From Paludibacter sp. (GTDB lineage: Bacteria > Bacteroidota > Bacteroidia > Bacteroidales > Paludibacteraceae), in assembly GCA_017882285.1 (NCBI GenBank), contig JADGPS010000005.1, positions 2,680 through 66,679 on the forward strand: DNA of 64,000 bases, given 5' to 3'. The notes under the pieces were generated by a model. The model had not been told where the DNA came from, made no database searches, and saw only the letters and a program-made list of their open reading frames with translations. Below are positions 19,035-33,950 of this stretch, piece after piece (the first letter of the stretch is position 1; each line of letters starts with the position of its first letter). Made by a program: the position numbers and the translations under genes.

Positions 19035-19156
19035 TACATTTTCAAAGTTTGCCAGGGCACGGAAGCAGAAAGAACACAGCGATTTATACACATATCACTA
19101 CCAAAGGTTTTGAAGAGAAAAAAAGTCCGTTAGACAACTTGAAGATTTATGAATAA
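19035..19156 (+). pseudogene. Tyrosine recombinase/integrase extreme C-terminal remnant
   Basis: YI-(2-nt slip)[37 protein letters not shown], matching the LGH...T.IYTH...SPLD end of Bacteroidota XerD/IntI-like integrases. Confidence 0.8.
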
Positions 19157-19423
19157 AACACTTGTTATGTAAAAATATAATATTATTTTTGGAAATTAAA
19201 TCAAATATCATAATAGAAATCAACATAATTGTATTTATTACAAATTTGGATATGTGGAACTGCATAAAATTTATAAATTTATATAACTATTTGAATTTAT
19301 GCGGAATAATATATTTAGATTATAAAGATAAGGCGAAAATAGGTGGAACTGATTCCGGATACAGAAATTGAGATGAAGATACACAGATGTTATAGGGCAT
19401 TTTAAAGAGACCGAAAAAAATCG

Positions 19424-19431
19424 TACATTTG
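19424..19431 (+). promoter_or_regulatory. -7 box (TACATTTG) 4 nt before the DUF488 ATG; likely leaderless transcript
   Basis: TAnnTTTG ends at 19431, ATG at 19436. Confidence 0.5.
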
Positions 19432-19435
19432 AAGT

Positions 19436-19987
19436 ATGAAAGAGGCAACAATATATTCTATAGGACACGGCAACAAAAAAATTGAGGACTTCATTAATGA
19501 ACTTAAGTCTTTCAATATTCTGTTTCTGCTTGACATTCGGTCAAAACCATTTTCAAAATGGAATCCTCAGTTTAATCAAAATGAACTAAAATTCAAAATA
19601 GAAGAAAATGGGATAAAATACGTTTATGTTGGTGACACGTTGGGTGGTCTTCCAGAAGACAGAACTTGCTATGATTACAATGGAAAAGTGGTTTATGACC
19701 TTATTAAGGAAAAGAATTTTTTTAAAGAGGGCTTAGAGAGACTTATAATTGCGAACGATAAAAATATAAATCTTGCAATCATGTGTAGTGAATCAAACCC
19801 TGAAGAATGCCATAGAAGTAAGTTAATTGGACAAGAATTACTCAAAAAGAAAATTTCTTTAAAACATATAATTTCAAACAAAGTTATTAAATCACAAGAA
19901 ATTGTGATGATTGAGTTAACAAAAGGCAAGGGAACAGTTGACCTTTTTGGTAATGAAATGGACTTTAGATCTCGCAAATCATACTAA
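19436..19987 (+). CDS. DUF488 family protein (copy 1)
   Basis: IYSIGHG, LLDIRSKPFS, LGG, AIMCSESNPEECHRSKLI. Confidence 0.88.
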   Translation: MKEATIYSIGHGNKKIEDFINELKSFNILFLLDIRSKPFSKWNPQFNQNELKFKIEENGIKYVYVGDTLGGLPEDRTCYDYNGKVVYDLIKEKNFFKEGLERLIIANDKNINLAIMCSESNPEECHRSKLIGQELLKKKISLKHIISNKVIKSQEIVMIELTKGKGTVDLFGNEMDFRSRKSY

Positions 19988-19989
19988 AT

Positions 19990-20466
19990 ATGAAATTTTT
20001 CACAATTGGAGTTTATAACTCAACAGAGCAAGAATATTTCAAAAAGCTCACTGATAATAATATTGATACTTTTTGTGATATTCGACAACGCAGAGGAGTT
20101 CGAGGCTCTCAATATGCCTTTGTAAACAGTAATAGGCTTCAGGCAAGGCTTAATGAGCTTGATATTAAATACGGACATATTATTGACCTTGCTCCAACAA
20201 CTGATATTAGAGAACTTCAAAAAGAAGTTGATAATCAGCAGGGTGAACTCAAAAGAGACAGAAACAAATTAGGTCAGGTTTTTACCATAGCTTATAAAGA
20301 CAGAATTTTGAGCAAATTCGATTTTGAGTCTTTTATAGACAAGTTAGATGAAGTTGGTGCAAATAAAGTTGTTTTGTTTTGTGTGGAGGAAAAGCCAGAA
20401 GCTTGTCATAGATCGATTGTGACTGACAAATTGGAAAAACTCGGATACGATATAACTCACTTATAA
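19990..20466 (+). CDS. DUF488 family protein (copy 2)
   Basis: FFTIGVY, FCDIRQRRGVRG, VLFCVEEKPEACHRSIV; starts 2 nt after the upstream stop. Confidence 0.85.
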   Translation: MKFFTIGVYNSTEQEYFKKLTDNNIDTFCDIRQRRGVRGSQYAFVNSNRLQARLNELDIKYGHIIDLAPTTDIRELQKEVDNQQGELKRDRNKLGQVFTIAYKDRILSKFDFESFIDKLDEVGANKVVLFCVEEKPEACHRSIVTDKLEKLGYDITHL

Positions 20467-21110
20467 TGGACGTAATAATAGTTTCAAAAACTCATATGTC
20501 TACTGCCGCTTGTGTTGGTGGAGTTCTTGCAAATGGTCGTTTTGTAAGATTACTTGACTCAAATGGTTACAATCAAAACAGTGATACTGACATTAATGTT
20601 GGTGATGTTTATACAATCACATTTGTTGAAAGACAGGATAAAAAACCACCTCATGTAGAAGACATTTTAGTCAACACAATGTCTTTTAAGTTCACTTTTT
20701 CTTCTATAGATGAAATGGTTGAATACTTGAAAGAAAAGTTGAAAGTTAAAATTTGGAAAGGAAGTACCGAAATTCTTTTTGATGGTAAACTTCAATGGAC
20801 AAGTGGAGGAAGTGGCTACATTTCAGAAAGTGGCGAAATACCTTATAATAGTGTTGGATTTTGGATACCGGATAAAGATTTGATTCGAAAAGATTATAAT
20901 GAAAAGGTAAGGTATAGTTATCCAATAAGATGGCGAAATATATCTTATGTTGGCTTCCTTAATCCACTTGATAAAATACCTGCAGGAACTTTGACAAGAG
21001 TTTCATTAGCAAGGTGGTGGTCTCCAAACGAAGATGAAGAAAGGTGCTATTTACAGTTATCTGGTTGGTATGGTTTACCCATCCAGTCGGATATATCTAA
21101 CACTGATTAA
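20466..21110 (+). CDS. Hypothetical protein resembling dual OB-fold (DuOB-like) nucleic-acid-binding domain
   Basis: TAATG overlap with upstream gene; IVSKTHM..ACVGG...VRL N-terminus, HVEDILV, RVSLARWW, CYLQLSGW; family call from recall only. Confidence 0.6.
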   Translation: MDVIIVSKTHMSTAACVGGVLANGRFVRLLDSNGYNQNSDTDINVGDVYTITFVERQDKKPPHVEDILVNTMSFKFTFSSIDEMVEYLKEKLKVKIWKGSTEILFDGKLQWTSGGSGYISESGEIPYNSVGFWIPDKDLIRKDYNEKVRYSYPIRWRNISYVGFLNPLDKIPAGTLTRVSLARWWSPNEDEERCYLQLSGWYGLPIQSDISNTD

Positions 21111-21168
21111 ATGTGCAATAGATCAGGCTTGGTTGTTGGGATTTTCTTTTAATCCCAACTCTTGTATT
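21104..21168 (+). repeat. 65-bp structured cassette-end repeat, copy 1 (homologous to 27749-27813 minus)
   Basis: TGATTAAATGTGCAA...TGGTTGTTGGGATTTTCTTTTAATCCCAACTCTTGTATT; 9-bp stem 21135-21143/21151-21159. Confidence 0.8.
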
Positions 21169-32277: not shown

Positions 32278-32324
32278 TATTTAGAATGTAATCTTAATAT
32301 TTCTTGCCTACTCTCCCGCTTTTT

Positions 32325-32372
32325 CGGCTTTCGCTCCCTACTCTGTTTCGGATTTTCGGGGATGTTCCGTTC
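32325..32372. repeat. 48-bp direct repeat, copy 1 (3' side of Kelch gene)
   Basis: TCGGCTTTCGCTCCCTACTCTGTTTCGGATTTTCGGGGATGTTCCGTT; 42/48 identical to 33575-33622. Confidence 0.85.
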
Positions 32373-32376
32373 AGGT

Positions 32377-33528
32377 TTATTGTTTTATAAATTTTTTTGT
32401 TATTATTCCACTTTTATTCTGTATTTGAATTAAAAAAATTCCGACTGGCAATTTTTTCACATCAATTTGATTATCACGAATCTGTTTATGTATAAACACT
32501 TTGCCACTTAAATCAGATATTGTAGCATCTGAGACTTGGATTAATCCGGCAATATTCAAAATGCTATTTGATTGATTCATATAAATTTTGAAATTATCAA
32601 CCATATTGTTAGAAAGCCCTGACAACAATCCGTCTGAGACTTGAAGACTTGACAAAGCACTGTTACTATAAGAACTTTGATTTCCACCCATTACATACAG
32701 TTTTCCATTTAATGCCACAGTTCCGGCATGTCTTCTACCAATCAAATTGCTTTGAACTGTTGCAAATTCATTTTTAACCACATCATAATAAGCCAGATAA
32801 GTCAGTATTGTATAATCACCCACAATCCATATTTTATTATCCCAATAAGTAGTGGCATGTGCCGAAACGCCTTGCGGCATATTCATAATAAAAGTCCATG
32901 TATTGGTCTGAATATCATACATATCAATTCGTGTCGAAACCGAACCATTATAACCGCCAATCACATATAGTTTCCCATTTACTATTTCCCCTTTTGTTTG
33001 TTTCCCTTCAGGCATACTTGCCAGTTCAGTCCAAACTTCAGTTGCAGGATCGAAAACATATAGTTTATTGGAATTTACAATGCCCTGACTTCCCCCGAAA
33101 ACATATATTTTATTGTTCCATACTGCCGAGCCGGATTGTTCTACAGGGTTGGGATTATCGGTTGAATAAGTAATGCTTCCGGTTGTCAGGTCAACAACTT
33201 CCATTTTGGCATTGTATGAAGTACTTGAATATCCATTAAAAATATACAATTTGTTCCCGATTACTTTTGAAGCAGTATACCTTTTGGGTATTAAAGAGTT
33301 TGCAAATACTGTCCATGAATCGGTTGAAATATTATATTTTTCAATTTCGGTGGTATATCCTGCTGTAAAAGTAAAACCGCCGTTGACATATATATTCGCA
33401 CCATCTGTAGCACTTGAAATCAATCCACGAGCAACATTCATGTTAGCTCCATTATGAAAACTAATTTGTGCTGTTGTTAAATTGCCACTTATAAGATAGA
33501 TTGCAAGAATAAAAGTAATTCTTTTCAT
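32377..33528 (-). CDS. Kelch-repeat beta-propeller protein with T9SS type-A CTD
   Basis: IYVFGG, LYVIGGY, LYVMGG Kelch motifs; C-terminal LPVGIFLIQI...TKKFIKQ. Confidence 0.88.
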   Translation of the reverse strand: MKRITFILAIYLISGNLTTAQISFHNGANMNVARGLISSATDGANIYVNGGFTFTAGYTTEIEKYNISTDSWTVFANSLIPKRYTASKVIGNKLYIFNGYSSTSYNAKMEVVDLTTGSITYSTDNPNPVEQSGSAVWNNKIYVFGGSQGIVNSNKLYVFDPATEVWTELASMPEGKQTKGEIVNGKLYVIGGYNGSVSTRIDMYDIQTNTWTFIMNMPQGVSAHATTYWDNKIWIVGDYTILTYLAYYDVVKNEFATVQSNLIGRRHAGTVALNGKLYVMGGNQSSYSNSALSSLQVSDGLLSGLSNNMVDNFKIYMNQSNSILNIAGLIQVSDATISDLSGKVFIHKQIRDNQIDVKKLPVGIFLIQIQNKSGIITKKFIKQ

Positions 33529-33574
33529 ATTTTTTATTTAATTGTCATTGTTTATAAATTATTTCACACCTCAA

Positions 33575-33622
33575 TCGGCTTCCGCTCCCTGCCTTTTTTC
33601 GGATTTTCGGGGTTGTTCCGTT
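33575..33622. repeat. 48-bp direct repeat, copy 2 (5' side of Kelch gene)
   Basis: TCGGCTTCCGCTCCCTGCCTTTTTTCGGATTTTCGGGGTTGTTCCGTT. Confidence 0.85.
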
Positions 33623-33635
33623 TATATATAGAGTA

Positions 33636-33950
33636 GAGACGCCATTTCTCAACCGAAAGACCCTATTTCGTAATCGAGAGATACAATTTCTCAATCAAGA
33701 GTTGCTATTTCGCAACCAAGAGAAGCGATTTCGCTACCGTGAGACGCTATTTCGCAACCCAGAGACCCTATTTCGCAACCAAGAGACGCTATTTAGCAAC
33801 CGAGAGACGCCATTTCGCTATCAAGAGAAGCGATTTCGCTACCGAGAGACGCTATTTCGCAACCCAGAGATTCAATTTCGTAACCAAGAGACGCTATTTA
33901 GCAACCAAGAGACGCTATTTCTTGACTATGAGAAGCGATTTCGCTACTTA
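33636..33950. repeat. Tandem array of 15 degenerate 21-bp units (consensus GAGACGCTATTTCGCAACCAA)
   Basis: Units contiguous with no spacers; 105-bp higher-order period. Confidence 0.95.

Follow-up and report, generated by a model that had tools for sequence, protein, structure and literature searches.

Among known bacterial mobile elements, the pdif/Xer-site modules and the integrative mobile elements exploiting Xer (IMEX) are non-autonomous and depend for their movement on Xer-family tyrosine recombinases that act in trans at short sites. These are 28-bp dif-like sites read by the housekeeping XerC and XerD, and not a relic of a recombinase gene. Another geometry, in which the attachment site lies within the integrase coding sequence and the insert comes to be bracketed by the two parts of the gene, int(C) and int(N), has been described as limited to archaea to date (PMC7253208). 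For a resistance gene linked to a tyrosine recombinase, the layout ISCR2-parA-tet(X3)-tnpF has been described (PMC11322121). Here we report the analysis of a 64,000-nt stretch of DNA from a Paludibacter sp. assembly (GCA_017882285.1, contig JADGPS010000005.1, positions 2,680 to 66,679; hereafter the window), in which a strain-variable segment of 2,328 bp on the plus strand, island 1 (19042-21369), carries at its two ends pieces of a decayed tyrosine-recombinase gene. An earlier note on this DNA, made from the sequence alone, had proposed a decayed integron-like cassette system over 19035-33950. We find that island 1 is a precise strain-variable insertion and, with less confidence, that it is probably a non-autonomous gene cassette inserted by conservative site-specific recombination.

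The runs that contain window DNA are permafrost, peat and soil metagenomes, coded here as X1 (the window's own sample), X2, X7, X8 and X10. Strains were compared by aligning contigs of other metagenomes to the window and by comparing read depth inside a segment with that of its flanks; comparison contigs carry L numbers. Contigs in X2, X7 and X10 link position 19041 straight to 21370, skipping the 2,328 bp of island 1, and depth within the island in these three metagenomes is 5-10x below that of the flanks; in the window's own sample it is even. The same empty-site sequence, ACATTTTCAGAAC, is found in these contigs and in a JGI contig (L093, with a porin 98% identical to that of the window), where the site reads GAAAGTTTACATTTTCAGAACAAAATTGTAC, the left flank fused to the right flank. 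An outgroup contig (L094, porin 80% identical) also has the porin gene followed directly by kduI, and the empty site is thus the ancestral state. Four further strains with 98% porin identity (L098, L099, L100 and L102) carry a different insert of ∼5.6 kb at the identical left junction. This insert starts with a stump of its own (QSLPG*ASSKTTAIYPLNHTKGFD*IKSPLDKLEIK*), and the proteins encoded behind it are one of 209 aa, a PD40-type propeller, a Fib_succ lipoprotein and one of 379 aa. The integrase piece at the left end of the window insert and the L098 stump are 76% identical, whereas the porin gene and the right flank are 97.4% and 99.3% identical, so that the two inserts are independent acquisitions at one nucleotide. 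Both begin at one chromosomal nucleotide and at one nucleotide of the integrase fragment, and although content varies among the empty, window-type and L098-type alleles, the left breakpoint is common to all of them.

Island 1 consists, in order, of part b (19042-19191), a spacer (19192-19389), the cargo with its leader (19390-21079), a repeat module that we call PalREP (21078-21316) and part a (21317-21369). Part b contains the C-terminal stump of an integrase (19043-19156, plus strand), which comprises box II, the catalytic-tyrosine motif IYTH and the ending SPLDNL with its stop, and which matches family fragments in tblastn searches at an E-value of 3e-13 and 56-68% identity. The attachment unit conserved between cassettes extends past this stump to 19191. 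Part a contains a short stump (21318-21371, plus strand, E-value 2e-6) made up of (RN*) and 15 residues of the box I region, and it ends at the right junction; the RN* that stands before FATH may be a remnant of a preceding integrase stop region or decayed RHS codons. The order of the stumps is permuted: both are on one strand, and 2.2 kb separate the C-terminal piece from the N-terminal piece downstream of it. Judged against family fragments that end in SPLDNLEI, the two meet exactly between RYI and QSL in the protein (DLRYI, then QSLPGH). The integrase remnants that the earlier note had reported do exist, but by this alignment they are the abutting halves of one split and permuted fragment of ∼57 codons and not two separate remnants.

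An unsplit version of the same unit was recovered by a pattern scan of JGI data in contig L104, whose sample also yielded the empty allele L093. In this contig the unit is in frame, reads GGTATATTCAAAG and precedes yet another cargo gene; the left boundary of its part a is identical to that in the window, though the context differs. It is preceded by non-integrase sequence and contains stops, and a complete integrase is not restored. The unsplit unit has the form GGT ATATTCA AAG and the empty target the form AC ATTTTCA GAAC, with cores identical at six of seven positions. At the left junction of the window insert (19035-19044, plus strand) the core is of the target type (ATTTTCA at 19038-19044; ACATTTTCAAAG), whereas the left junction in L098 has the unit-type core (ACATATTCAAAG), and the triplet TCA at 19042-19044 recurs at 21370-21372, common to both sides of the skipped segment. 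When checked against a conservative exchange, the left junction is exact and the right junction 1 nt short, and joining the two ends of the window insert rebuilds the integrase fragment to within 1 nt. We infer that this pattern fits a crossover inside a short overlap, the mismatch being settled in favour of either partner. On neither strand does the unsplit unit fold better than shuffled sequences (z +0.92 and +0.96). Contigs of X1 aligned to L104 include an L104-type cargo gene at the depth of the window strain (10.6) and an 8,092-nt contig that ends in part a, which points to a second unit locus in the window's population. A joint in X7 that "goes back" was considered as a circle junction and rejected, as the entire contig aligns to the L104 locus.

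On the reading that we favour, the cassette would have entered as a circle, with an attachment site of ∼200 bp whose origin is the final ∼57 codons of a gene for a TnpF/Xer-like tyrosine recombinase. The strands would have been exchanged within the Tyr-Ile-Gln codons, presumably across a 7-bp overlap, when the unit core ATATTCA met the chromosomal pseudo-site ATTTTCA in the porin-kduI spacer. The exchange would have split the unit, leaving the 3′ half (part b) on the left of the insert and the 5′ half (part a) on the right. Because the stumps were already decayed before insertion, a full-length family member whose gene lies elsewhere would have catalysed the reaction in trans.

The family to which such an enzyme would belong was characterised by profile and homology searches. 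The best profile score of the C-terminal stump is to the "integron integrase" model TIGR02249 (49 bits). With the joined stump as query, a homology search gave no protein longer than 91 aa, a surplus of short matches that may reflect candidate selection and was not used as evidence; an exhaustive search with a 90-aa fragment returned relatives of ∼100 to 675 aa. All ten relatives that were scanned (303-644 aa) have the domains Phage_int_SAM_4 and Phage_integrase. Against TIGR02249 they score 195-221 bits, under the cut-off of 265, and match in two stretches (the first from ∼1 to 180) while skipping ∼180-240; the fragment P0035 aligns to 239-315. They score about equally against XerA, and reach 135-153 against NF011946 (cut-off 435). 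By profile, the family thus groups with Xer-type and integron-type recombinases while reaching neither integron cut-off. Its closest annotated relative, which has 65.5% amino acid identity to P0137, is a truncated tnpF/xerD-like gene that immediately precedes tet(X3) on Acinetobacter plasmids and on pHH1107. The metagenomes that carry window DNA hold many related integrase 3′ sequences, and the window's own sample has a 2,983-nt contig with an in-frame integrase stretch of 10 residues at the depth of the window strain; when contigs of this sample were aligned to L016 and L013, only the conserved 3′ region matched at 80% or more. In alignments to L013 (9945-10083), an integrase remnant recurs in X1, X2, X7 and X8 with an internal deletion of 137 nt replaced by 8 nt (GATGAAGA or GATAAAGT). 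This deletion takes out the stretch from box I to box II, and these are another class of decayed copy of the same family.

Stump-bearing units also occur elsewhere. In contig L011, from an unrelated Bacteroidia metagenome-assembled genome (GCA_040880525.1), repeats of ∼430 bp between 6885 and 13677 separate same-strand TIR (TIR_2), DUF2806, Fic and unidentified genes, and each repeat has a 54-codon stump starting LRHSF and two palindromes, one of 26 bp (ACCATTCCGATAGCTATCGGAACGGT) and another that follows the stop; partial units lie at both ends of the array. Stumps that directly follow a housekeeping gene and are followed in turn by same-strand accessory genes were found in L003-L010, L022 and L105. 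A left boundary at about LRHSF recurs in L011, L003, L085 and L091, and a similar one is present in a Verrucomicrobia and a Mesorhizobium contig. Between the integrase stop and the first cargo gene lies a palindromic motif (AGTGGATATA..ACGC..GCGT..TATA..GTTAT.TGCC), which is common to L011, L003, L105 and the tnpF-tet(X3) segment. In the tnpF-tet(X3) spacer of the Acinetobacter and pHH1107 plasmids (L109, 4052-6073, and L108, 5052-7073) the palindromic motif is AGTGGATATATACGCCATTTGGCGTATAGCCACTTGTTATGTGCC. Variation beside the stump between L003 and L004 was also considered; it is an internal indel of ∼340 bp unrelated to the unit.

The cargo of island 1 is a self-promoted module that has its own leader (from 19390) and comprises two DUF488 genes (19436-19987 and 19990-20466) and a DuOB gene (20466-21110), all on the plus strand and assigned by Pfam. 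The "attI-like spacer" that had been proposed at 19157-19435 is made up of the tail of the integrase unit (to 19191), cargo-specific sequence and this leader. PADLOC matched the cargo to PDC-M45B (9.2e-49) and PDC-M45C (5.3e-15), and gave no match for DuOB; PDC-M45 is a PADLOC candidate system, whose components B and C are adjacent here (component A not being defined here), and DUF488-DUF488-DuOB is accordingly a candidate anti-phage system by homology. The 1,690-bp cargo module recurs elsewhere without an integrase stump, in L110/L111 at 97.8% identity, in a same-strand island adjoining DUF3267 and DarT-Macro genes, and in L112/L113 at 88% identity, alone between housekeeping genes. The trio is therefore a mobile module of its own, for which the stump-bearing cassette is one vehicle. 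In L110 (ENA ERZ27297473 contig, 4177-10462), the island of the trio also has a helix-turn-helix (HTH) gene and its intergenic spacers have common repeats such as ACCCGCAAGTTGGGTTTCAGTGCTTCGTTGACAG, which may be another kind of cassette boundary.

The repeats that the earlier note had regarded as shared cassette ends are of a different nature. Copies of ACTTGCCTGCGGCAGGCAGGTTT at 21175, 21239 and 23350 are genuine, with 12 strand-matches where 0.01 would be expected, but six sites in the window carry the palindrome CCTGCCTGCGGCAGGCA, each just past a gene end, among them sites after secA, kduD and the AAA_14 gene; the other three, at 12611, 35578 and 41998, follow housekeeping genes. Two copies (21175-21197 and 21237-21259) form an inverted pair within PalREP, a dispersed module of ∼239 bp with a hairpin; the copy after kduD (23350-23372) is solitary and is also present in L098, which has different cargo at the insertion site. 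Read depth of PalREP in the metagenomes is 10-20x that of its flanks, and other copies mostly continue past 21316. Its fold (-42.9 kcal/mol, z -9.5) is the only strong hairpin of the cassette. PalREP supplies the last ∼10 codons and the stop of the DuOB gene, and because homology of the cargo with L110 stops at 21079, it has overwritten the original 3′ end of DuOB. L098 has PalREP copies at 14455-14688 and 16161-16258. We also observed that PalREP adjoins integrase units in two cassettes at the identical PalREP position (GGAAGGAC), that a hairpin related to PalREP lies at 27749-27789 and that the PalREP hairpin is terminator-like. The palindromes are dispersed elements resembling repetitive extragenic palindromic (REP) sequences and bacterial interspersed mosaic elements (BIMEs), and not cassette ends: the CCTGCCTGCGGCAGGCAGG palindromes are found between genes, at the 3′ ends of these, in many copies and sometimes as inverted pairs; they fold strongly and are independent of changes in gene content. 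They differ from these elements in that the PalREP module, at 239 bp, exceeds the classical REP length.

A second strain-specific block, island 2, spans 26821-34296. Contigs of the dominant strains in X2, X7, X8 and X10 join 26820-26826 to 34297 with ∼190 other letters between, and the 7.5-kb block is missing from L094, where the RNase and AAA_14 genes that flank it are 277 nt apart. A search found no pieces of the integrase unit in island 2 or elsewhere in the window, and the block looks like an ordinary replacement of a flexible-genome segment, unrelated to the cassette mechanism. It contains a putative toxin-antitoxin (TA) pair (27009-27561) and, on the minus strand, genes for a BspA-type leucine-rich repeat (LRR) protein with a type IX secretion system (T9SS) tail (27841-30750), a Fib_succ/fn3 protein (30784-32277) and a Kelch protein with a T9SS tail (32377-33528). 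The TA assignment is plausible: the 110-aa product matches the RelE family PF06296 (1.6e-7, 32 bits against a cut-off of 27), and the upstream overlapping 76-aa partner open reading frame has no match in Pfam or NCBIfam. Repeats of 69 bp within 28.4-29.4 kb are LRR_5 coding repeats.

The 48-bp direct repeats said to bracket a gene in this block are genuine, with copies that are 88% identical, but they mark no breakpoint and are better described as leaders. Copy 1 (32324-32371, minus strand) matched the DUF805b RNA motif (Rfam RF02914; 35.6 bits, E-value 5.5e-7) in a permissive scan, its score equalling the gathering score over the full 35-position model; copy 2 (33575-33622, minus strand) is a weaker DUF805b-like match below threshold (14.4 bits, E-value 1.1), and a scan of the whole window at the gathering threshold returned no match. 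Each copy lies 47 nt upstream of the start of a minus-strand gene, encoding the Fib_succ and the Kelch protein respectively. In other contigs the same element stands right after the stop of a T9SS gene and before the next gene (joints 32371 to 27841 and 33622 to 27840), which makes it a recurrent intercistronic leader. No joint between the two 48-bp copies was seen in metagenome contigs, giving no sign of excision of the Kelch gene. The likeness to DUF805b elements lies in the full-model match of copy 1 and in the fixed distance of both copies upstream of genes; the differences are that the downstream genes here encode T9SS proteins or lipoproteins and not DUF805 proteins, and that the stem folds no better than shuffles. 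Island 2 also holds a tandem array of ∼15 copies of a 21-bp unit (33620-33960, consensus AGAGACGCTATTTCGCAACCA). Read on the minus strand, this array immediately precedes copy 2 of the DUF805b-like element and the gene for the Kelch T9SS protein. Its copy number differs between metagenomes, and it might be a regulator-binding or phase-variable promoter region.

The DNA around the two islands is normal chromosome. To the left of island 1, scans with Pfam, NCBIfam and PADLOC identified a LysM protein gene adjoining that of the porin-family outer-membrane protein (18390-19013, plus strand; OMP_b-brl_2, 6e-30), which forms the conserved left flank of the insertion site and whose homologues bear Paludibacter names. 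Between the islands (21613-26819) Pfam identified kduI, kduD, a DUF4861 gene, tsaB and a beta-CASP RNase gene, the last on the minus strand, and the order from kduI to the RNase is retained in both L094 and L098; these genes are conserved backbone and not cargo. To the right of island 2 lies an ATPase gene of the AAA_14/DUF4143 type with an HTH domain (34382-35560), and a pyruvate:ferredoxin oxidoreductase gene also belongs to this part of the gene order. The ATPase, which is likewise backbone and present in L094, matches the PADLOC candidate PDC-S01 (1.8e-22) and, weakly, the CRISPR-associated Csa3/CasR regulators. This backbone belongs to a Paludibacter-like Bacteroidales bacterium of peat and permafrost. 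Elsewhere in the window, a PAP2 phosphatase gene (13515-14315), between lgt and a methyltransferase gene, is missing from the relative with 80% porin identity (L094-L097) and present in the 98% strains. No tRNA was found in the window, and no intact recombinase either, as the earlier note had said. The region is thus interrupted by two independent strain-specific insertions, and of the single cassette system proposed for 19035-33950 a cassette-like insertion at 19042-21369 is all that stands. That note had also made its proposal depend on repeats coinciding with breakpoints of gene gain or loss across strains: the integrase stumps lie exactly at the breakpoints of the 2,328-bp segment, whereas the REP-like palindromes and the 48-bp repeats do not lie at such breakpoints.

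Several observations weigh against the reading of island 1 as a cassette inserted in trans. The right junction (GGTATATCAGAAC) is one T short of a perfect reciprocal exchange, the core lacks inverted-repeat arms, a circular form was not observed, and no full-length integrase could be assigned to the window's genome. In a scan of 25 loci, no full-length family integrase had a same-strand stump-bearing unit within 10 kb downstream, and hence no primary site or array next to an active gene was found. The outer boundaries of the L011 array are not at the YIQ core, and the cargo trio also moves by other routes, since two other loci carry it without a stump. On a rival reading, the locus would be the relic of an autonomous "suicidal" element of the SSV type, in which a full-length integrase with an internal attP was split on integration and later lost most of its N-terminal part in a deletion involving PalREP. 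The order int(C), cargo, int(N) is that described for archaeal type I integrases (PMC7253208), and PalREP adjoins the short stump and overwrote the 3′ end of DuOB, which implies that a local deletion did happen. However, the left boundary of the short stump is identical in the unsplit L104 unit, in a different context, and a similar boundary recurs in L011, L003, L085 and L091; both stumps are heavily decayed though the insertion is young relative to strains that are 97-99% identical at the flanks; and the cargo leaves no space for ∼250 integrase codons. We consider this origin unlikely.

It is somewhat harder still to see the porin-kduI spacer as a flexible-genome hotspot with no dedicated system, filled by illegitimate or homologous recombination and strewn with stumps that are old prophage or island debris. 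Island 2 does behave in this way (∼190 nt replaced and no site signatures), the trio occurs elsewhere without stumps and dispersed repeats adjoin the unit in several places, but random breakpoints would not give twice, for two different inserts, the same start nucleotide in both chromosome and fragment, and the window insert moreover ends at the complementary point of the fragment, so that its joined ends rebuild it to within 1 nt. Mobilisation of an integrase tail and its cargo by a rolling-circle (IS91/ISCR-type) or other transposase we regard as very improbable. The closest annotated relative, the truncated tnpF beside tet(X3), travels with ISCR2/ISVsa3 on Acinetobacter plasmids (PMC11322121), and the right junction adjoins GAAC, which is GTTC, the IS91-type target, on the other strand, an observation that we note without taking it as support. 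Yet neither the window island nor the L098 insert holds an HUH/IS91 transposase gene or remnant, capture of this kind yields co-linear and not circularly permuted segments, and the exchange here appears reciprocal at a point common to unit and target. A true but decayed integron, with an IntI remnant, attI and attC cassettes over 19-34 kb, has next to no probability left and is refuted as stated. The TIGR02249 score of the C-terminal stump, the defence, TA and surface-protein cargo typical of cassette arrays and the presence of two strain-variable blocks all speak for it. Against it, the full-length relatives fall under the TIGR02249 cut-off, skip ∼180-240 of the model and score equally against XerA; an attC-like fold is missing from the unit (z +0.9); the palindromes follow housekeeping genes and are REP-like elements dispersed over the genome; the kdu, tsaB and RNase genes are conserved backbone; and island 2 has no site remnants.

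The site-specific cassette reading of island 1 is the one that we carry forward, and on it we base two broader suggestions, both tentative. There may be an undescribed cassette system in Bacteroidota, and possibly in other phyla, in which TnpF/Xer-like recombinases move non-autonomous cassettes whose attachment site duplicates the 3′ end of the recombinase's own gene, although we would not call this likely. It is similarly conceivable, and no more assured, that such a system is a bacterial trans-acting counterpart of archaeal "suicidal" SSV-type integration which builds small arrays of defence and surface-protein genes, with tnpF-tet(X) as a captured example. If general, it would explain the many short "tyrosine recombinase" C-terminal open reading frames annotated in Bacteroidota, offer a route for the exchange of defence modules and surface lipoproteins, and account for the genetic background in which tet(X) and other tnpF-linked genes originated. 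On a practical level, caution is advised, since what appeared here to be a single system was for the most part three unrelated kinds of repeat: palindromes of the REP type, repeats that code for LRRs, and a leader motif at the RNA level.

Among the known systems with which island 1 can be compared, the integron analogy is partly right, in that functionally there is one site with alternative cargo. Accessory genes are inserted site-specifically, promoter-proximal and on the same strand, the cargo alternates between strains at one site, and the recombinase family is by profile score the nearest Xer-like neighbour of IntI. Cassette content does vary with breakpoints at recombination sites, which speaks for a cassette-like function and is not proof of integron membership. 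That membership, and with it the integron-like identity first proposed, fails on integrase, attC and attI alike: the IntI class-specific part of the profile is missing from the relatives (<265 bits), the site has no attC hairpin and is double-strand-like, within a relic of the 3′ end of the recombinase gene itself, and no integrase-attI platform was found beside the cassettes, either in the window or at the full-length loci scanned. As regards pdif modules and IMEX, no dif-like 11-6-11 site is evident at the window junctions, for which no dedicated test was made.

The tnpF-tet(X3) segment resembles the stump-bearing units in that its cargo gene starts ∼190 nt after the integrase stop, on the same strand, with the palindromic motif of L011, L003 and L105 between. 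It differs in that the integrase there is N-terminally truncated only and ISCR2 is what moves the segment; neither a split stump nor a cassette polymorphism is on record for it, and no search for one was made. The closest likeness in geometry is to the archaeal SSV type, as the insert has QSL to the stop at its left end and the residues up to RYI at its right end, in the same orientation, and these are contiguous in the L104 unit. The archaeal class, however, targets tRNA genes, whereas the host here is bacterial (Bacteroidales) and the target an intergenic pseudo-site between porin and kduI, and since the joined ends give only a decayed fragment of ∼57 codons, the mobile form cannot encode its own enzyme. 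Island 1 would thus be a non-autonomous, bacterial instance of the SSV-type geometry, observed while still polymorphic, as near-identical strains have an empty site, one cargo or another.

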